Positions 14,021 to 57,094 are shown, numbered from the stretch's first letter. The stretch is 64,000 nucleotides of DNA from an uncultured Candidatus Saccharibacteria bacterium (GCA_964479955.1 CAYZNK010000003.1:66329-130328), one strand, 5' to 3'. Numbers and translations are program-made. Notes: generated from the letters alone by a model not told the origin.

Positions 14021-14681
14021 ATGGCGGAAAAAATTCAAAATTCTAACAGAGGTCTTACAATGGTTGAGCTTATTGTTGTTATAGCTGTTTTTATGTTGGT
14101 TGTTAGTGTGGCTATAGTTATTTTTGTATCCATTATTGATAGCCAGAGAATAATTTTGTCTCGCGAGCGGTTATTGAGCCAAGTTAGCTACGCTACAGAA
14201 TATATGTCAAAAGCCTTAAGAATGGCCTCAAAAGACATAGGCGGAGATTGTCTTGTATATACAGATGTTAATTATAATATTACAGATACGTTTCCGGGAT
14301 ATATCTATTTATATACAAGGCCGAATAGTTGGTATGAGGGGATAAAGTTTATAAATGAATCTAACAATGAAGCATGTCAAGAATTTTATTTAGCCGAAGC
14401 AGGAGGAAACGTACTAAAAGAAAAAAGAATAAATTTCCCGTATGACCAAGTTACTGATGAAAATTCAGTATCCTTAATTTCTGATAAGTTTAGTATCAAT
14501 TATTTAAGGTTTAGCATAAATGGAACAAGCGGATTGGAGGCTGATTTAATATATGGAGCATCAGAGGATGATGACCCTCCGCAGCAGCCAAGAGTTACTA
14601 TTATTATGGGAGTTCAGTCTCCGGAAGACCCATTGCAATCTGAAATAAAAATACAAACCACGATTTCTCAAAGAAATTTAA

Positions 14682-48743: not shown

Positions 48744-51131
48744 ATGTTCATAGAAAATTTGCAAAACAAAATTAAAAATTTTTTACAAAAAGAAATTGTG
48801 TTTTTCAAAAAAGGGGATTTTATCTTTTCTGTCAAACCTCTTCCGGCTTTGCAGGGAATTTTACTGGTTTCGGTTTTTTTGTTTCTTTTTATTTTTACCC
48901 ACATTCCTCCTGGTCCAGAGAAAATAAACCAGTCTCTGGTTATTTCTGAATTTGCAACAAAAACCCGCGCTGTTGCCGGAAAAACTTCAGAACACATTGT
49001 TTTAATCAAAAAAAGCGAAATTACAAAAAATAATTATTATTTAAAACTTCCAAAAACAGCTGAAAATATTAAAATATCAAGCGTTTCATCCCAGACAGCA
49101 AAAATAGCTTTGCAGGATTACAGTACAACCCCTTTGGTTTTGCCCGAAGAAAGAAAAGTTTTTGCAAAAAAAGAGAAAAGTTCCATATTTGCAGGGATTT
49201 CCAGTTTATTTTCTCAAAGCATGGCTGACTTAAGCGAAGCCGTTTTGGATATTATGGAAAATTCAGATAACAGCCAAATAAATGTTCCAATAACAGAACA
49301 GGAAGATTCTATTTATGTTGACTTGTCCTCTGAATCAGAGGAAACTGTCCAACCAGAAGAGTTGACACAAGAAACATCCGTTGCCGAAACGCCAGCACAA
49401 GAGCCTGTTGATGAAGCAACAGCTGAAATACCTGCTGATGAGGTTTTAACAGACAAAGAACAACATAAAGCCAGCAAAACCGAGCAGGAATTAAATAAGG
49501 CAGACAAAGAAAAACAAACTAAAGAAAAAACATCCAAACAGGACCAGGAATCTGACTTGCCATCTGAATCACAGGAAACTGTCCAGCCAGAAGAGCCAGC
49601 AGAAGAACCGCCCGCCATTGAACCGCCCGCAGAAGAACTGCCCGTTGATGAACCGCCCGCAGAAACACCAACAGAGGAAACTCCATCAGATAGCCCGGAA
49701 ACAGAATTAACAGAAGCCGTGCCAGAAGAGCAAAAAACAGTTGACAGCGGAGTTTCTGAACAAGAATATGTTCAGATAACCTATGAAACTCCTGCTCCGG
49801 AAATAACAGAGCAAGAAACAGACACAGGAAAACTCATAACCGTTTTGGCAGACGATGAAGGTTTGCCAGAGCCCATATCAAATGTTGTTGCATATACTGC
49901 AATCCCTGAAATCTACAAAGTTGGCCAGGAATCCAAAATAAAGCTTAAATGGAAAAACCAGGGCGACCAGGAAGTTGAATTTCACGCCTATGACACAGAC
50001 AACAACGGAAAGCTTGATTATGTTGAGTGGACAATCCCGCATTTGTCAGAACAGATTTTTGAAATCATCTTCATTTCCAAAGCCTTCAGGTTAGATGAAA
50101 ACAAGGAAATCACAGAAGATATTTACGAATATGTTCAGGCAAAAGACAGCAACTGGGTCACATTAAACAGCAAAGAATATATCAGAGTAACTTTTGAGCA
50201 AATCTTAGACAATACAAAAGACATAACCGTTTACGCAAAGCCAACAGGAGAATCAGCAGGGACAATACAGGTTTATGAGCAGGGAACAGACACGCTAATA
50301 GTTGAGTTTCCTGCAATAAACGCAGAAAACACATACAAAGTTTTGCTGACAAACCTGCAAAACCCGTCAGATGTTTTTGACCTTAAAATCACAGGCAATA
50401 TTGATTTTGATTATATTGTTGACCCTACGGTAAGCGACAGTTTTAGTGATGAAACAAAAATCGGGGCAGGCACAACTTATGTCCAGCTTAGTAGCGGAGT
50501 ATTAATTCAACCTTGTTATGTTCCAAATCCATCATGGACAAAAATTGCAGACACTTTGGTAAGGGATATTGCCGGAGCATACAACTCCACAATAGCAAAA
50601 GATATTTACTGCGATGACAGCAACTGCATTTTGTGGACAGACGGGGCAGAAGCCCCAGGCACAGTCTGCATTGCAACAGACGCAAATGTTTACGCAAATA
50701 TTTTGTGGTCAAAAACAGATGTGTCAGGAACACAAACATGGTCAGACACAAATTTTGACTTGTACGGGGGTGACATAGGCGGGACACATTCCACAATAGG
50801 GGTTGGAAATGGAAATACTGCTGTTGGAACAAAAAATTGGCTTGAAAGATATTACAGCAATTCTGCTTCCGGAACTTTCAACGCAATGGATGCCTGTAAG
50901 GCAAAAGGAATTGGCTGGAGACTGCCAACAATTGTGGAATTAGACAGCATAAGGGACCAGGCAAAAGGAAGCTCGCCATATTCCAGGTTGCCTAATATTG
51001 TTGCGATCGGCTATTGGTCGTCTTCCGAGTATTCCACGACTAACGCCTACAGCTTGTACTTCGGCAGTGGCAATGTGCTCAACCTCGCTAAGTCTAGCAG
51101 CTACTACGTGCGCTGCGTCCGAGGGTATTAA
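48744..51131 (+). CDS. DGR target (variable) protein: N-terminally anchored surface protein with C-terminal DUF1566/C-type-lectin-fold-like variable domain
   Basis: It has an N-terminal TM segment and an acidic P/E-rich repeat region. The C-terminus GWRLPTIVELDSI...YWSSSEY...YYVRCVRGY contains the VR. Confidence 0.85.
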   Translation: MFIENLQNKIKNFLQKEIVFFKKGDFIFSVKPLPALQGILLVSVFLFLFIFTHIPPGPEKINQSLVISEFATKTRAVAGKTSEHIVLIKKSEITKNNYYLKLPKTAENIKISSVSSQTAKIALQDYSTTPLVLPEERKVFAKKEKSSIFAGISSLFSQSMADLSEAVLDIMENSDNSQINVPITEQEDSIYVDLSSESEETVQPEELTQETSVAETPAQEPVDEATAEIPADEVLTDKEQHKASKTEQELNKADKEKQTKEKTSKQDQESDLPSESQETVQPEEPAEEPPAIEPPAEELPVDEPPAETPTEETPSDSPETELTEAVPEEQKTVDSGVSEQEYVQITYETPAPEITEQETDTGKLITVLADDEGLPEPISNVVAYTAIPEIYKVGQESKIKLKWKNQGDQEVEFHAYDTDNNGKLDYVEWTIPHLSEQIFEIIFISKAFRLDENKEITEDIYEYVQAKDSNWVTLNSKEYIRVTFEQILDNTKDITVYAKPTGESAGTIQVYEQGTDTLIVEFPAINAENTYKVLLTNLQNPSDVFDLKITGNIDFDYIVDPTVSDSFSDETKIGAGTTYVQLSSGVLIQPCYVPNPSWTKIADTLVRDIAGAYNSTIAKDIYCDDSNCILWTDGAEAPGTVCIATDANVYANILWSKTDVSGTQTWSDTNFDLYGGDIGGTHSTIGVGNGNTAVGTKNWLERYYSNSASGTFNAMDACKAKGIGWRLPTIVELDSIRDQAKGSSPYSRLPNIVAIGYWSSSEYSTTNAYSLYFGSGNVLNLAKSSSYYVRCVRGY
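50997..51125 (+). repeat. DGR variable repeat (VR)
   Basis: It aligns gap-free with 51356-51484 over 129 nt. All 15 mismatches are at positions where the TR has A. Confidence 0.9.
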
Positions 51132-51355
51132 TTCAATTAAATTTTCAATATGTAAAGATAATTTAAAATTTGGAATTTCACGCGCCGCCCGATTCTTACA
51201 AAGCTCGCCACGTATTGGCATAAAGCTTGTAAAGAGAGTGCGCAAGAATATTAAATACGACTCCTGTCGCGCATAGGAACAAGTCATGCGCATCGATTGT
51301 CAGAAAGTTTCTTTTAAATTTAAACTTTCGGAGAAATGATTCGTGCGGGAGAAAA

Positions 51356-51484
51356 ATTGTTGCGAACAACTATTGGTCGTCTTCCGAGAATTCCACGACT
51401 AACGCCTACAACTTGAACTTCAACAATGGCAATGTGAACAACAACGCTAAGTCTAACAGCAACTACGTGCGCTGCGTCCGAGGG
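51356..51484 (+). repeat. DGR template repeat (TR)
   Basis: This noncoding copy is rich in AAC/AAT triplets. It is identical to the VR except at 15 adenines. The 3' 23 nt are GC-rich and invariant (IMH-like). Confidence 0.9.
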
Positions 51485-51530
51485 CACTTAATATTCAGCC
51501 AAAATTTTTTGCGGCGTAAAAATTTAAAAA

Positions 51531-51893
51531 ATGTATAACTTAGAACATCTTCCAATTTATTTAAAAATTTACCGGTTTATAAAATTTTTATATGAAGTAG
51601 TCAAAAATTTTCCAAAGCAATATAAATACACATTAGGAGAAGATATTTTAAAAATTGCATGGGAATGTCTGGATGAAGCCATAGAAGCCAACTCTTTGCC
51701 GAACGATAAGAAGTTTCTAAAAATTCAGGCTTTAAGTGTAAGTTTTGATAAACTAAAAATAAGAATGAGAATGGCCCATGAAATAGAAGCGATATCTTTG
51801 GGTCAGTTCTCACACATGAATGTTTTTTATACAAAAGAAATCGGAGAAATGGTCGGAGGATGGCTTGCGTGGGCAAAATCTTATAAATTATGA
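51531..51893 (+). CDS. avd: DGR accessory variability determinant (Avd-like four-helix-bundle protein)
   Basis: The 120-aa ORF is predicted helical. It lies between the TR and the RT, and its stop overlaps the RT start (ATGA at 51890-51893). Confidence 0.8.
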   Translation: MYNLEHLPIYLKIYRFIKFLYEVVKNFPKQYKYTLGEDILKIAWECLDEAIEANSLPNDKKFLKIQALSVSFDKLKIRMRMAHEIEAISLGQFSHMNVFYTKEIGEMVGGWLAWAKSYKL

Positions 51894-53053
51894 GTTCTAA
51901 AATTTTTACTTTTGAAAAAATTTATAAAGCCTATCTTGATTGCCGCAAAACAAAAAGAAAGACAATCAATGCCCTTAAATTTGAATTTTGTTTTGAAAAA
52001 AATATATTCTTGCTAATGGAAGAATTAAAAAATAAAACATACAAGCCCGGTCGTTCAGTCTGTTTTGTTGTAAAAAATCCTTCACCAAGGGAAATATTTG
52101 CGGCAAATTTTAAAGACAGAGTTGTTCATCATATTTTAATAAGAGAAATTGAAAAAATAGGAGAACGAAAACTTATTTATGACACGTTTTCCTGCAGAAA
52201 AAGAAAAGGAACACATCTTGCTGTTAAGAGATTAAAAAGCTTTATAAAAAAAGCTACAGAAAACCACACAAAAGAAGCGTTTTATATACAAATGGATATC
52301 TCGGGTTTTTTTATGGCAATAGACCACAATATTTTGTATTCAATTTTTGAAAAAATAATTTTAAAGCAAAAAAAGACCCGAATATGGAAAGATGATATTT
52401 TATGGCTGGCAAAAACAATTATTTTTTCAAAACCAACTGAAAATTATCTAATTAAGGGTCAGCGTTCTTTGTTTAATATTTTGCCAAAAAGAAAATCTCT
52501 TTTTTATTCTGACAGCAATAAAGGCCTGCCTATTGGAAATTATTCTTCACAATTTTTTGCCAATCTTTATTTGAATAAATTAGACCAATTTATAAAAAGA
52601 GAGTTAAAATGCAAATATTATGCAAGATATGTTGATGATTTTATATTGATTGACAGAGATAAAAACAAACTTATTGAAGCAGAAAATAAGGTGAATAATT
52701 TTTTGAAAACAGAACTTGACATGAGCCTTAATCCGAATAAAACAAAATTGAAATCGTTAGATAGCGGAATTGAATTTTTGGGATATTTTATAAAACCCCT
52801 TTGCATTTTAACCAAACAAGGGGTGGTAAAAAGGGCAAAAGAAAAAATATACAGATTCAATCAATTGGAAAATTTAAATATTGATAAAGTTATATCCGTA
52901 TTAAATTCTTATTACGGACACTTTAACCACGCTAATACATTTAATTTAAGAAAGTCAATTTTTGAAAACTGCGTGGGGGGGGGGGGCTTAAAGGGAAAGA
53001 TTTTAGTTTCAGCAGATTATAAAAAAATAATTTTGAAAAAAATCAATGCATAA
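51890..53053 (+). CDS. DGR reverse transcriptase
   Basis: RT motifs are QMDISGFFMAIDH, LPIGNYSSQFFANLYLN, YARYVDDFILI, LNPNKTKL and IEFLGYFI. Confidence 0.9.
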   Translation: MSSKIFTFEKIYKAYLDCRKTKRKTINALKFEFCFEKNIFLLMEELKNKTYKPGRSVCFVVKNPSPREIFAANFKDRVVHHILIREIEKIGERKLIYDTFSCRKRKGTHLAVKRLKSFIKKATENHTKEAFYIQMDISGFFMAIDHNILYSIFEKIILKQKKTRIWKDDILWLAKTIIFSKPTENYLIKGQRSLFNILPKRKSLFYSDSNKGLPIGNYSSQFFANLYLNKLDQFIKRELKCKYYARYVDDFILIDRDKNKLIEAENKVNNFLKTELDMSLNPNKTKLKSLDSGIEFLGYFIKPLCILTKQGVVKRAKEKIYRFNQLENLNIDKVISVLNSYYGHFNHANTFNLRKSIFENCVGGGGLKGKILVSADYKKIILKKINA

Positions 53054-53109: not shown

Positions 53110-53643
53110 ATGGGCATAAAACAAAATAAAGTTAAAATATATATTGACGGAGCAAATATATTTTATACTCAAAAAAGGTTGGGTTGGTTTATTGATTGGC
53201 TAAAGATAAAAAATATTATTGAAAAGGAAAAAGAAGTTGCAGAATGGAAATATTATGTTGGCGTAAAAGACGGAGATGAAAAAATGATGGATTATATAAA
53301 ATATCTTAATAATATTGGTTTTTATACAGTAACAAAATCATTGAAAAAGATTAAAGTTATCAAAGATAAAATTTCCCCCAAAACGCAAGAAAGGGAATTT
53401 ATTTATAAGGCGAATTTTGATGTGGAAATGACAGCAGATATTTTGTTGGATAAATCCAAACTGGATGAGATTATAATTTTTAGCGGCGATAGCGATTTTA
53501 GATATTTGGTTAAAAAATTAAAGGATGCAGGGATTAAAACAATGGTTTATTCATCTAGAAAAACAATATCGTGGGAATTGAAGTTAGAAATTTCAAAAAT
53601 TGTTTATTTTGAAGATATTAAAGATGAAATATTAAGGCAATAA
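53110..53643 (+). CDS. NYN-domain (LabA/DUF88-like, PIN-related) putative ribonuclease
   Basis: Motifs are KIYIDGANIFY and IIIFSGDSDFRYLVKKLKDAGIKTMVY. It is co-oriented 57 nt downstream of the RT and is followed by a hairpin. Confidence 0.75.
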   Translation: MGIKQNKVKIYIDGANIFYTQKRLGWFIDWLKIKNIIEKEKEVAEWKYYVGVKDGDEKMMDYIKYLNNIGFYTVTKSLKKIKVIKDKISPKTQEREFIYKANFDVEMTADILLDKSKLDEIIIFSGDSDFRYLVKKLKDAGIKTMVYSSRKTISWELKLEISKIVYFEDIKDEILRQ

Positions 53644-53710: not shown

Positions 53711-56700
53711 TTGTCAACAGCAAAAACAAAAATTAAAAGTTGGTTTTCAAAGGCAATCATTGTTGTTGCGGTTTTGCTTTATGTTTTTGGAATTGCCTTA
53801 ATTTATGCTGAAACTTATTATTCTTCGGCAATTTTGGTTTCAACAAATTTATTGTCGGGATTAACAATAAACAGCGTTGATTATTTTGGATATAATTGCA
53901 GTATTCTGGCAAACACTACATTGAAGGTTCAGTTTAGCCAGGACGGGGATTCCTGGTATTCTGCAAGCCATGTTGCAGATACATGGACGGATTTGTCAGA
54001 CGGAAGCCATCTTGATTCAGGCTCCGGGGCTATAGCTTTGTCCGGGTTTGATATTGATACGCCTAATCCTGAATTTTATTACAAAATACAGCTTAGCACA
54101 TCTGATACAGCAACAACTCCCAATTTCATTTCTGTAAATTTAATTTACAATACAGGTTCTTACGCAACCGCAACAACACAAGCCGCATCCGGAGTCTTGG
54201 CGCTCACTGCCACAGGCAACGGAAATATCACAGGCGCAGGAAGCTCAACAATAACAAAAAGAGGGTTTCAGTATGGCATAAGCCAGACAGCAAATTTAAG
54301 GGAAGTTTCTGAAACAGGAACATTTGGAACAGGGGCATTCTCATTGGAGCTTACATATTTATACGCCGGAAAAACACATTATGTGAGGTCATTTGCGCAA
54401 AACTCAGAAGGAAGGGCTTACGGAGACTGGCAGGAGTTTACAGCGCTTGATAATTATTATTATTCTTCGGCTGTTGGGGTTTCCTCAAATTTATTATCAG
54501 GACAGACAGTAAACAGCATAAACGGGTTTTTTGCCACAACAAGCATTCCTTCGGGAACAGGAATTACAGCGCAATTTAGCCAGGATAATTCTTCTTGGTA
54601 TTCGGCAGGAGGAACATTGGACGGAACAACATCTTTGTCTAACGGGGAAAACCAAATTGATTTGACAGGTCTTGGATGGTCGGGAGCCAATTTTTACTAC
54701 AAGGTTGCTTTAAGCGCTGACAGCGGAAGATTGGAAACTCCTGTGTTGCAGTCTGTTTATTTAAATTACAATGTTCCGATTGAGTCTTCGGGACCTTCAG
54801 ACAGTGGCTCTTCTGCGTCAAATCCAACACTTTCGGGAAGCGATATTGATTTTTCAATAACTGCCACTGATTCAGAGTCTGATAATTATTATCTTGCAGT
54901 CTGCAAAACAAATTCAATCACAGCCAACAATGAAGCCGTCCCAACTTGCGGGGGCGGAAATTGGTGCATTTCTGACTCAACTGTTTCTGCAAGCCAGGCT
55001 TCCTGCAGTTATACAACATCTGGCACAGATGAGGGGGATAATAGTTGGTATGCTTTTGTTTGTGACCATAATGCAGAATCTGCTTGCTCTGTTGCTATGC
55101 AGGGAACAGGGGATAATGGCTCTCCTTTTTCAGTTTACATTGACTCAACAGCTCCAACCACAACAGCAGACGCAGGAAGCTATGTTTTTGGAAATTGGTC
55201 AAAGGAAAATGTTGAAGTCTCTTTGTCCTGCGATGACGGGTCGGGTTCCGGATGCGCAACTACAAAATACTGCACAGACACAGACAACACCTGCACTCCA
55301 ACCACAGATTACACAACTGCCGTCACAATTTCCACAGAAGGCACAAGCTACATCAGGTATCTTTCAACTGACAATGCAACCAACGAGGAAACAGCCAAAA
55401 GTTCAACCGTCAAGGTTGATAAGACAGCTCCAACCACAACAGCAGACGCAGGAAGCTATGTTTTTGGAGAAACATCAACATCAGCAATCACAGTCACCTT
55501 GGTCTGTTCAGATGGTTCGGGTTCCGGATGCCTGTCCACACTTTATTGTACAGACACAGACAACACCTGCACGCCTGCAACAAGCTATACAACTGCCGTC
55601 ACAATTTCCACAGAAGGCACAAGCTACATCAGGTATCTTTCAACTGACAATGCAACCAACGAGGAAACAGCCAATTCAGAAACAATTGTAATACAAACAT
55701 CAACTTCCACTCCGTCTACAGGAGGGGGGTCTATGTGGCTTCCTATTGGTCAGCAGGAAGCAGAAGACAACAATAAACAAGAGGATGATAAAAAGCCTGC
55801 TTTAGAGATTGATAAAAACATTATTTTACAGATAGGCCAACAATTAAAAGACATGGCAGATGGAGCAATGGAATTTTTCTTTGGTAAACAGCAAACTGCG
55901 GTTTCAGAAATAACTATTCCAGAAGAAACTCCCGAGGCTTTTGAGAATATAGAGATTATGGGGGAACTGCCCGCAGAAAGTTTAGAAATTTCATTTATAG
56001 GGGACAATATCAGTTTTTTCTCCGGAAAATTGCCGGATTTCTCACAGACAATGCAGGATTTAGGAATAAATGATTTAAATAATTTAAGGGAATTGGGCGG
56101 AGCAGAATTTATTTTGCCCGGAATTGCTTCTTTTGTTGGCGTAGAAGTTGGGGATGTTGAAGTTGGCTTGAATATACCTGTAGTTTCTATTGCTAATATG
56201 AACCGGGAAGAAAAGGACAAAATTCCAACAGACATTATTTTTGCAAGAACAGCAGCAGAATCAATAGAGCATAATATGGCAATTTCAGTCAGCGATTCCG
56301 GGGATGTTGAACAGAGAATTTCATTGATAGCAAGCCAAAAAGTTGAACTGATAATAAAGCCGCAAAACACAGCCAAAAGAATAACTGGAATAGTTATTTT
56401 AAAGAATAAGCCCGAAGCAAAACTAAATCCATTTTCTGACCTGTGGAGATATTTTTCGGCTGCCTTAAGCGGGTATAACACAGACGAAGAAAATTTGGAA
56501 ACATACGGTTTGCTTTTGGATAAGTTTGAATATTTTTACGAAGGTGACGGAATTTATAAAGCAGAATTTAAGGCTCCTGTAAATGAGGGAGAATATGAAA
56601 TAATAACAATTATTGAATACGAAGAAAGCAGTTTGCGTTCAAAGGGAATAAAATTAATTGCCGCAGTTGACCCTGAGGGATATATTTTTAGGAAACTTCC

Positions 56701-57094
56701 ACAGGGAGAGCTTAGGGTGAGGGATGCATTGGTGTCAATTTATTGGCTTAATTCTGAAACCGGAGAATACGAACTTTGGCCGGCTAAAAAATATTTTCAG
56801 GAAAATCCGCAGACAACCGATGATACGGGAAGATATGTTTTTTTGGTGCCAGAGGGAATATATTACCTTAAAGTTGAAGCTAAAGGATACCACACTTATG
56901 AGGGCAGTCCGTTTTCAGTGGTCAAAGATATCGGTGTGCACAAAAATATTGAATTAAAAAAGAAGGCGGAGTGGAAAGAGTGGCTTGATTGGAAAATTTG
57001 GATAATAATAATTCTGGGCATTGTTATTGCTTTAATTGTTTATAAATACATTAAAAATTTAATTTCAAAAAATGGAACAGAAAAAAATATTTAA
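53711..57094 (+). CDS. very large surface protein with internal repeats and C-terminal TM anchor
   Basis: The start is TTG. It has an N-terminal hydrophobic segment, two ~110-aa related modules (SSA..VS.NLLSG.T.NS...QFSQD..SWYSA) and two tandem 92-aa Cys-containing modules. It also has a CarboxypepD_reg-like segment (GRYVFLVPEGIYYLKVEAKGY) and a C-terminal TM helix. Confidence 0.7.
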   Translation: MSTAKTKIKSWFSKAIIVVAVLLYVFGIALIYAETYYSSAILVSTNLLSGLTINSVDYFGYNCSILANTTLKVQFSQDGDSWYSASHVADTWTDLSDGSHLDSGSGAIALSGFDIDTPNPEFYYKIQLSTSDTATTPNFISVNLIYNTGSYATATTQAASGVLALTATGNGNITGAGSSTITKRGFQYGISQTANLREVSETGTFGTGAFSLELTYLYAGKTHYVRSFAQNSEGRAYGDWQEFTALDNYYYSSAVGVSSNLLSGQTVNSINGFFATTSIPSGTGITAQFSQDNSSWYSAGGTLDGTTSLSNGENQIDLTGLGWSGANFYYKVALSADSGRLETPVLQSVYLNYNVPIESSGPSDSGSSASNPTLSGSDIDFSITATDSESDNYYLAVCKTNSITANNEAVPTCGGGNWCISDSTVSASQASCSYTTSGTDEGDNSWYAFVCDHNAESACSVAMQGTGDNGSPFSVYIDSTAPTTTADAGSYVFGNWSKENVEVSLSCDDGSGSGCATTKYCTDTDNTCTPTTDYTTAVTISTEGTSYIRYLSTDNATNEETAKSSTVKVDKTAPTTTADAGSYVFGETSTSAITVTLVCSDGSGSGCLSTLYCTDTDNTCTPATSYTTAVTISTEGTSYIRYLSTDNATNEETANSETIVIQTSTSTPSTGGGSMWLPIGQQEAEDNNKQEDDKKPALEIDKNIILQIGQQLKDMADGAMEFFFGKQQTAVSEITIPEETPEAFENIEIMGELPAESLEISFIGDNISFFSGKLPDFSQTMQDLGINDLNNLRELGGAEFILPGIASFVGVEVGDVEVGLNIPVVSIANMNREEKDKIPTDIIFARTAAESIEHNMAISVSDSGDVEQRISLIASQKVELIIKPQNTAKRITGIVILKNKPEAKLNPFSDLWRYFSAALSGYNTDEENLETYGLLLDKFEYFYEGDGIYKAEFKAPVNEGEYEIITIIEYEESSLRSKGIKLIAAVDPEGYIFRKLPQGELRVRDALVSIYWLNSETGEYELWPAKKYFQENPQTTDDTGRYVFLVPEGIYYLKVEAKGYHTYEGSPFSVVKDIGVHKNIELKKKAEWKEWLDWKIWIIIILGIVIALIVYKYIKNLISKNGTEKNI
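55148..55699 (+). repeat. tandem 276-nt (92-codon) intragenic repeat x2
   Basis: ACAGCTCCAACCACAACAGCAGACGCAGGAAGCTATGTTTTTGGA starts at 55148 and again at 55424. A long identical stretch, ACAACTGCCGTCACAATTTCCACAGAAGGCACAAGCTACATCAGG...GAAACAGCCAA, is present in both units. Confidence 0.85.

Follow-up and report, generated by a model that had tools for sequence, protein, structure and literature searches.

Is the arrangement of repeats and genes at positions 48,744-53,053 of this bacterial DNA a complete and working diversity-generating retroelement (DGR), and what RNA would such an element use as its template? DGRs as a family operate through a cycle in which an RNA containing a template repeat (TR) is transcribed, bound by a reverse transcriptase (RT) and the Avd protein, and copied into cDNA that is mutagenized at adenines, after which the cDNA replaces a variable repeat (VR). 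We addressed the question in a stretch of 64,000 nucleotides (GCA_964479955.1, CAYZNK010000003.1:66329-130328), hereafter the window, for which a first-pass annotation had proposed a complete DGR made up of a TR/VR pair, Avd, RT and a target protein with a lectin-type fold. Each of these defining components was tested and found. The locus is very probably a complete chromosomal DGR of the type known in the candidate phyla radiation (CPR, or Patescibacteria), carried by a Staskawiczbacteria-like genome. The element itself is an ordinary member of this known and very abundant class. What is new here is a structured leader RNA that is linked to the TR throughout the clade and is absent from Rfam. 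The parts of the element all lie on the + strand, and coordinates are those of the window unless a related locus is named.

The template and variable repeats

The VR (50997-51125) makes up the last 43 sense codons but one of the target gene, and the TR (51356-51484) is non-coding. A scripted recount aligned the two repeats without gaps over 129 nt at an offset of 359. It found 15 mismatches, at VR positions 51007, 51009, 51010, 51030, 51052, 51057, 51063, 51064, 51067, 51078, 51079, 51084, 51085, 51097 and 51102, and the TR base is A at 15/15 of them. This matches the annotated alignment exactly, and mismatches at TR bases other than A, which the first-pass annotation had named as evidence that would speak against it, number zero. 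The TR contains 39 A, 34 C, 29 T and 27 G, in agreement with an earlier hand count of about 39 adenines, and the chance of all 15 mismatches falling on the 39 A among 129 positions is 1.7e-9. The mismatches are confined to the first or second positions of 11 TR codons of the form AAC or AAT (AAY), which read ATC, GGC, TAT, AGC, TAC, GGC, AGT, CTC, CTC, AGC and TAC in the VR. Three AAY codons (51042, 51072 and 51081) are the same in both repeats, and 11 of the 14 VR codons templated by AAY are currently changed. The final 23 nt of the repeats are identical and GC-rich, with divergence after GGG (TAT TAA following the VR, CAC TTA following the TR). These codon and end counts likewise reproduce what had been annotated.

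The pair also emerged as the top repeat family in an independent direct-repeat search. The homology can be extended by 3 nt upstream (50994/51353), which adds a 16th difference, A to T, at 50996; because the corresponding locus of a sister strain has the same T, this position is probably outside the homing tract. No second VR was found when both strands of the 64-kb window were scanned.

The existence of a direct repeat would in itself fit an ordinary duplication or gene-conversion tract with an adenine bias that arose by chance, and nothing beyond that existence favours such an origin. The probability given above argues against it, as do the adjoining Avd and DGR-type RT genes. Moreover, dozens of related loci that have these genes show this pattern too: when 164 such loci (including contigs that repeat the same element) were each compared with themselves, A-biased TR/VR pairs were recovered in most. 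An ordinary duplication is effectively refuted as an explanation.

The identical, GC-rich ends of the repeats had been described as resembling the initiation of mutagenic homing sites of VR and TR (IMH and IMH*). The identity followed by divergence stands, and the IMH/IMH* reading itself is by analogy. IMH/IMH* and the hairpin or cruciform downstream of them have been defined experimentally for the phage BPP-1 DGR only. A search for a BPP-1-type hairpin or cruciform after the VR turned up none, or none that is conserved; the GC-rich palindromes of some relatives look like insertions or terminators.

A structured leader RNA directly upstream of the TR

Directly 5′ of the TR lies a conserved RNA structure (51180-51357), which we describe by a covariance model, R1, of 175 positions and 38 base pairs. 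The leader has three parts: hairpin domain A, a single strand that is conserved, and a three-way junction that helix B closes. RNAalifold predicted the 38 pairs from 22 leaders, and 33 of them show compensatory changes. Standard pairs make up 92% of the pair counts, compared with 78.5% in shuffles (0/500), 160 cells are changed on both sides, compared with 53 in shuffles, and a shift of the partners by one column lowers the pairing to about 50%. The folding energy of the single leader sequence is not unusually stable (z = -1.2), which speaks against a structure here; because this energy is not significant, it was not used as evidence, and the structure rests on covariation.

R1 matches the window with 117.4 bits (E 2e-32), its only significant match there. 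By contrast, Rfam gave no match to the leader region at the gathering score or at E ≤ 10. In the related loci, R1 has 87 instances. For 64 of them a TR could be detected on the same strand, and 58 of these 64 end between -15 and +60 nt from the TR start, including instances in loci whose TR is located downstream of the RT, on either strand. Because R1 abuts the TR even when the TR is downstream of the RT, the leader RNA travels with the TR and not with avd or the RT.

Domain A (51193-51236) is formed by helix A, in which 51193-51197 pairs with 51232-51236, and encloses an inner hairpin. The three-way junction (51261-51351) comprises helix B and hairpins C and D. Helix B pairs 51261-51267 (CTCCTGT) with 51345-51351 (GCGGGAG) and is 98.7% paired, with 5 of its 7 pairs covarying. 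Hairpin C (51269-51274 with 51286-51291) is 95.5% paired, and hairpin D (51303-51310 with 51322-51329) is 98% paired with 9/9 pairs covarying. The 3′ strand of helix B stops 1-4 nt short of the TR homology, ending at 51351 where the homology begins at 51353-51356.

The leader is further joined to the short tail between the TR and avd (51485-51530) by two long-range helices, P1 and P2. The tail contains in order the 3′ strand of P2, an AU hairpin and the 3′ strand of P1; the hairpin is minimal in the window, and a larger, variable hairpin takes its place in relatives. P1 brackets the leader and TR together, pairing CGCCGC (51183-51188) with GCGGCG (51511-51516). It was tested by duplex energies, as MAFFT alignment of the tail failed on variable hairpin insertions. 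Cognate strands gave -10.65 kcal/mol and non-cognate strands -6.81 kcal/mol, a difference reached in 0/20000 permutations. The 5′ strand of P2 occupies 51246-51258. Within it, GAATATTAA (51246-51254) pairs with TTAATATTC in the tail (51488-51496), and the invariant C51258 pairs with G51484, the last base of the TR and the end of its homology to the VR. In an alignment anchored at the TR end (A5, columns 174-190 with 551-567), P2 is 88.8% paired, with 8 pairs changed on both sides (0/500 shuffles). Its pairing falls to 25-61% when the strands are slid, and the cognate test gave 0/20000. A linker of 2 nt, G51259-A51260, joins the P2 strand to helix B. P2 and helix B are thus placed at the two ends of the homology between TR and VR. 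The minimum-free-energy fold of the 374-nt RNA of the window recovers both P1 and P2. The RNA directly 5′ of the TR is thus structured, with conservation and covariation, and is connected to the tail by two long-range helices.

Could the leader (51180-51351) instead be a cis-regulatory 5′ untranslated region, of an attenuator or riboswitch kind, or an independent small RNA that controls avd and the RT? In this clade it does lie upstream of avd-RT, and the similar Rfam motif RT-15, discussed below, is without an assigned function. However, the leader follows the TR rather than avd or the RT, abutting TRs that lie downstream of the RT and on either strand. Its long-range helices reach sequence directly 3′ of the TR, and the helix that closes it lies against the TR 5′ end. 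This layout fits templating; it does not fit control over the translation of a gene 180 nt downstream. A regulatory function in place of a templating one is therefore unlikely.

Gene order and the spacer

The order VR-spacer-TR-avd-RT was found for 60 TR/VR pairs among the 164 loci (some contigs repeat the same element). The RTs of these pairs are nearly all at least ~52% identical to that of the window, with one at 49%; loci with more distant RTs have the order avd-TR-RT or carry the TR downstream of the RT. The spacer between VR and TR is 227 nt in the window and nearly always at least 210 nt in relatives.

Directly after the target stop codon there is a weak promoter-like site, TTTTCA-16 nt-TAAAAT (51142-51169), whose hexamers and spacing recur in an alignment of relatives. 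The number of sites in a promoter scan of the region was not above that in shuffles, which counts against a promoter. There is thus weak evidence for a candidate promoter that would start the TR RNA near 51176. Between the target stop and the leader there are also three conserved 7-nt periodic AATTTNN units (51160-51178), which in relatives appear as AATTTGG x3 with the consensus AATTTGGAATTTGGAATTTG. These units overlap the promoter-like -10 element and lie outside the RNA model; they are possible candidates for a promoter, a protein-binding site or a homing signal on the target side.

The sister strain carries short GC-rich palindromes that share GAGATAG...CTATCTC (locus L001, 600-690, 760-800 and 1150-1190). 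They are inserted in the VR-TR spacer and in the TR-avd tail and are absent from the window. These palindromes look like a small family of REP- or MITE-like repeats that tolerates insertion between functional RNA blocks.

The proteins of the element

The RT gene (51890-53053) encodes an intact protein of 387 aa and overlaps avd by ATGA. Its best relative in the PDB is the DGR RT of the Bordetella phage (8ub7; E 2.7e-39, 139 bits), whereas a group II intron RT matched at only 5e-10 and 42.6 bits. It has the motifs IGNYSSQ and YVDD, neither of which varies among homologues. NCBIfam has no model for DGR RTs, and the protein gives sub-threshold matches to other RT classes. There are 6,742 homologues at E ≤ 1e-10, the named ones being from Staskawiczbacteria, Paceibacterota and Nealsonbacteria. 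The length, overlap and motifs that had been annotated for the RT were all as claimed, with BPP-1 RT as the closest structure. The preceding gene, avd (51531-51893, 120 aa), had been called Avd-like, and Pfam bAvd (PF22296) bears this out with 66.8 bits against a cut-off of 40 (E 2.7e-18). An exact-sequence look-up placed the RT and Avd of the window on no other contig.

The target gene (48744-51131, with the annotated coordinates confirmed) encodes 795 aa and was characterized from its open reading frame by Pfam, hydropathy, composition and a structure model. The earlier description of an N-terminally anchored, acidic and Pro-rich surface protein agrees with a single strongly hydrophobic segment at about aa 33-55 and a content of 29% D+E and 11% P at aa 170-350; the middle region is without a family match. 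A series of 15-nt periodic repeats (49589-49660) lies within the acidic, Pro-rich region.

At the C-terminus, Pfam Lcl_C (PF07603, formerly DUF1566) matches residues 667-793 with 55.4 bits, above its cut-off of 34.9. For the 243-aa C-terminal domain, an AlphaFold model built with 63 homologues reached a pLDDT of 87 and a pTM of 0.84. The top Foldseek match of this variable domain is the C-terminal domain of Legionella Lcl (8q4e_A; probability 1.0, TM 0.63 on the target), which is also its best sequence match (E 7.9e-5, 22% identity), and the weak fold matches that follow are snake C-type-lectin-like proteins. The DUF1566/C-type-lectin fold proposed for the variable domain thus holds by both family and structure. 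The 14 residues templated by AAY codons (755, 756, 763, 767, 770, 772, 774, 775, 777, 779, 780, 781, 785 and 787) all fall on non-conserved columns of the family alignment consensus (14/14). Because homologues of the C-terminal part are mostly 260-290 aa long, the 795-aa target is, as judged from these alignments, an extended version of the variable-domain family. Residues 1-552 (48744-50400) form an N-terminal extension of about 550 aa that is absent from most homologues of the variable domain.

Continuing diversification in relatives

A sister strain that is fully syntenic with the window (loci L001-L003, L164 and L166) has an RT 92% identical and a GroEL 95% identical to those of the window. 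The TRs of the window and of L001 differ at 23 positions, and at 23/23 of these each VR has the base of its own TR. The sister VR differs from the sister TR at 18 positions, all of them at A. Because the 23 TR changes are mirrored in the cognate VR, transfer of information from TR to VR has taken place in both lineages after their split.

Diversification within the sister strain can be seen by comparing L001 with L164, which come from two samples. Over 4,950 aligned nt there are 19 substitutions, all of which are in the VR and at sites where the TR has A. Beyond these, the two are distinguished only by 3 nt inserted in the VR, within its AACAACAAC run, and by a single base of the RT gene, in a poly-G run. 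Among more distant relatives, we compared six contig pairs that are identical from the VR end to 1,200 nt past the TR. Five of these pairs are also identical in up to 400 nt upstream of the VR, and the sixth has 40 upstream differences. The two VRs of a pair differ at 16-27 positions each, and 126 of the 127 differences are at TR adenines. Diversification restricted to the VR is therefore ongoing in the sister strain and in other relatives.

The VR of L164 (14027-14161) is one codon longer than its TR (14528-14659), and the extra codon lies inside the AACAACAAC run. This suggests slippage of the RT or the template during homing, such that the length as well as the sequence of the VR can vary.

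The poly-G run is a G12 homopolymer in the window (52975-52986) and lies inside the 3′ end of the RT gene, in frame with a conserved tail of 21 aa. Relatives have G8-G12 at this point (L001 at 2660-2668, L164 at ~16226, L085-L092 and L135), and the tail is out of frame in 8 of 11 loci. The two sister samples have G9, in frame, and G10, out of frame, which is their only difference outside the VR, and L087 (G9) and L091 (G8) likewise differ in the length of the run. Candidate explanations for these length differences are phase variation of the RT, slippage during transcription and sequencing error in the homopolymer.

The element had been annotated as intact and therefore probably active. The first part is confirmed for the genes and extends to the RNA. 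The second derives its support from the TR-to-VR evolution and the VR-only changes of relatives: because the RT is in frame, the RNA elements are intact and relatives diversify, we rate the copy in the window as probably active. It might alternatively be a relic, in which the genes look intact, homing has ceased in this strain and the 15 VR differences date from long ago. Such a relic would be compatible with the finding of these exact RT and Avd proteins on no other contig, and with the RT tail of relatives often being out of frame through the poly-G run. In the window, however, the RT has its full length and keeps the frame of the conserved tail, every RNA helix is intact, and not one non-A mismatch has accumulated between the repeats. 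In addition, the VR has taken up 23/23 TR changes that date from after the sister split, and diversification is seen between samples of the sister strain. We therefore regard a relic as quite improbable.

Some observations weigh against reading the locus as a complete and active DGR. Support for activity is comparative, drawn from relatives of this strain. Avd scores 77.5 bits with the NCBIfam model DivGenRetAVD, just under its cut-off of 80. We found no difference between VR and TR of the IMH/IMH* kind, and neither the window nor its relatives showed a conserved hairpin or cruciform following the VR.

Host and neighbouring genes

The neighbours of the DGR are genes for UvrC, UvrA, GroES, GroEL, LemA and an M48 peptidase, and the element is therefore on a cellular chromosome. 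The GroEL is 81-82% identical to proteins of Candidatus Staskawiczbacteria, which supports a Staskawiczbacteria-like CPR bacterium as the probable host, in line with the annotation's remark that DGRs are known to be frequent in CPR-type genomes. Two genes after the RT were considered as accessory genes and rejected, being syntenic in the sister strain only. These are a gene for an NYN-domain (RNase-like) protein (53110-53643) and one for a surface protein of 1,127 aa (53711-57094). The latter has OmpL47-type beta-barrel and CarboxypepD_reg-like domains and carries no VR.

Proposed working of the element

In the cycle that we propose, an RNA consisting of the leader (51180-51351), the TR and the short tail (51485-51530) would be bound by the RT and Avd. 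The RT would then copy the TR into cDNA, misincorporating opposite adenines, and the cDNA would replace the VR (50997-51125). Up to 14 Asn-templated codons could be re-randomized in this way, giving a potential of 15^14, or ~3e16, protein variants. The variable residues would lie on the ligand-binding face of the C-type-lectin-like Lcl_C domain, at the end of a membrane-anchored, acidic and Pro-rich surface protein. The locus is then one more intact DGR in a class known to be abundant in CPR bacteria, and it suggests that an organism of the episymbiont type varies a stalked, lectin-like surface protein, presumably for attachment.

The leader has two practical uses. It defines the RNA to synthesize (~51176-51530) for the in vitro reconstitution of a CPR DGR, with testable predictions for the sites of priming and stopping, and the covariance model can be used to locate TRs in fragmentary metagenomic contigs.

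Comparison with known systems

The DGR of the window is a member of the CPR or Patescibacteria DGRs and does not differ from them in anything essential. It shares their cellular, Patescibacteria-restricted RT lineage, which corresponds to 'DGR clade 2' of Roux et al. 2021 (PMC8144416) and the 'CPR set' of Wu et al. 2018 (PMC5758913). Targets in clade 2 are usually without recognizable domains (PMC8144416), whereas the target here has a clear Lcl_C match and a long N-terminal extension. The leader RNA is not mentioned in either of these DGR surveys (PMC8144416 and PMC5758913).

With respect to its target, the element resembles the LdtA DGR of Legionella pneumophila and the DUF1566-CLec2 class (category 'd', PMC5758913), in which the VR likewise overlaps a C-terminal domain of the DUF1566/Lcl_C type in a surface-exposed protein. 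It differs in RT lineage and host, and in that LdtA is a lipoprotein whereas the target here has an N-terminal membrane anchor and an acidic, Pro-rich stalk. Compared with the C-terminal domain of Legionella Lcl (8q4e), the variable domain of the window has an extra N-terminal, Cys-rich half of ~110 aa. In the literature examined, Lcl was not found as a DGR target.

The elements of BPP-1 provide the closest mechanistic comparison. Both systems have A-specific mutagenic homing from TR to VR, an Avd and RTs of the same family, and both place the VR at the C-terminus of a domain with a C-type-lectin fold, with AAY codons as the variable units. The element of the window is chromosomal in a CPR bacterium whereas BPP-1 is a phage, and its target is an anchored surface protein of 795 aa rather than a tail fibre. 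The order here is VR, leader, TR, avd, RT, compared with VR, avd, TR, spacer (Sp), RT in BPP-1 (mtd-avd-TR-Sp-brt). The structured RNA thus lies 5′ of the TR in the window and 3′ of it in BPP-1. An IMH/IMH* difference and a cruciform after the VR also distinguish BPP-1 from the window, where neither was found.

In the BPP-1 ribonucleoprotein (RNP), as seen by cryo-electron microscopy, the strand that serves as primer, Sp47-56, is base-paired to the TR 3′ end. Two nucleotides after the primer, Sp59-70 pairs just 5′ of the TR to form a duplex that stops the polymerase. This duplex is followed by a short stem-loop, a single-stranded 'thumb ring' and a long RT-binding stem-loop, and an Avd-binding stem-loop lies just 3′ of the TR (bioRxiv 10.1101/2023.10.23.563531). 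The RNA described here likewise has duplexes at the 3′ end of the TR and abutting its 5′ end, with a 2-nt linker on one strand. Along the primer-side strand, the order of elements is also alike: P2, the 2-nt linker, helix B, the short hairpin C, a single strand and the longer hairpin D. The variable hairpin 3′ of the TR in relatives of the window corresponds in position to the Avd-binding stem-loop of BPP-1. The difference is one of connectivity. The 3′ end of the BPP-1 RNA is joined here to the segment upstream of the TR, and the chain is opened between the Avd-binding hairpin and the primer strand.

By analogy with BPP-1, we consider it an even proposition that P2 (51246-51258 with 51484-51496) is the template:primer duplex, that helix B is the stop and that the RNA as a whole is a permuted form of the BPP-1 TR-Sp RNA. 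On this model, cDNA synthesis would be cis-primed at or next to C51258/G51259 and terminated at helix B, and P1 would hold together the RNA ends where BPP-1 has a covalent link. Two points tell against the model: the candidate priming base is C or G here and A in BPP-1, and the priming and stop roles are inferred wholly from the analogy.

A further parallel comes from the motifs RT-1 to RT-19, which are found near RT genes; RT-10 lies in the TR-brt spacer of BPP-1, and other members of the set have been speculated to serve DGRs (Weinberg et al. 2017, PMC5737381). We found Rfam RT-15 (RF03018) directly 5′ of the TR in two proteobacterial DGRs, from Cupriavidus (L075, 5721-5903; 157 bits) and Methylophilaceae (L072, 5698-5900; 125 bits), at scores above the gathering score of 82 bits. 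The RTs of these two loci are 36-41% identical to that of the window. In two further batches of related loci, these two RT-15 matches were the only ones that Rfam gave. Our literature search found no link of RT-15 to DGRs and no function for it. RT-15 and the leader are of similar size (192 and 175 nt) and both lie immediately 5′ of the TR. In both, a hairpin domain on the 5′ side is followed by a conserved single strand and then by a multibranch junction, whose closing helix ends a few nt short of the TR. In L075, the conserved single strand of RT-15, AAUCUGG, is complementary to the TR 3′ end (CAGAUU). The two RNAs differ in that RT-15 has three inner hairpins rather than two and sits between avd and the TR. 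Their models do not detect one another: RT-15 gave no match to 51100-51560 of the window even at E ≤ 10, and R1 gave none to L072 or L075. We thus regard the leader of the window as a relative or analogue of RT-15 that has not been catalogued; by model, it is not a member of that family. Because RT-15 lies directly 5′ of the TR in the proteobacterial DGRs, its position implies that it is the DGR RNA scaffold of those elements.

Taken together, these comparisons raise a wider possibility, which we put forward more tentatively than the model for the window itself. A large lineage, comprising the CPR DGRs and probably the proteobacterial DGRs with RT-15, may use a circularly permuted DGR RNA that is cis-primed at the equivalent of C51258/G51259, stopped at helix B and held together by P1 in place of a covalent link. 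Its primer strand, stop strand and protein-binding hairpins would then all lie 5′ of the TR, where BPP-1 has them 3′. As part of the same proposal, diversification may be turned on and off by the poly-G run in the RT tail, which is prone to slippage. Reconstitution with the RNA defined above would show whether the RNP logic worked out for one phage DGR extends, in a permuted form, to the largest lineage of cellular DGRs.

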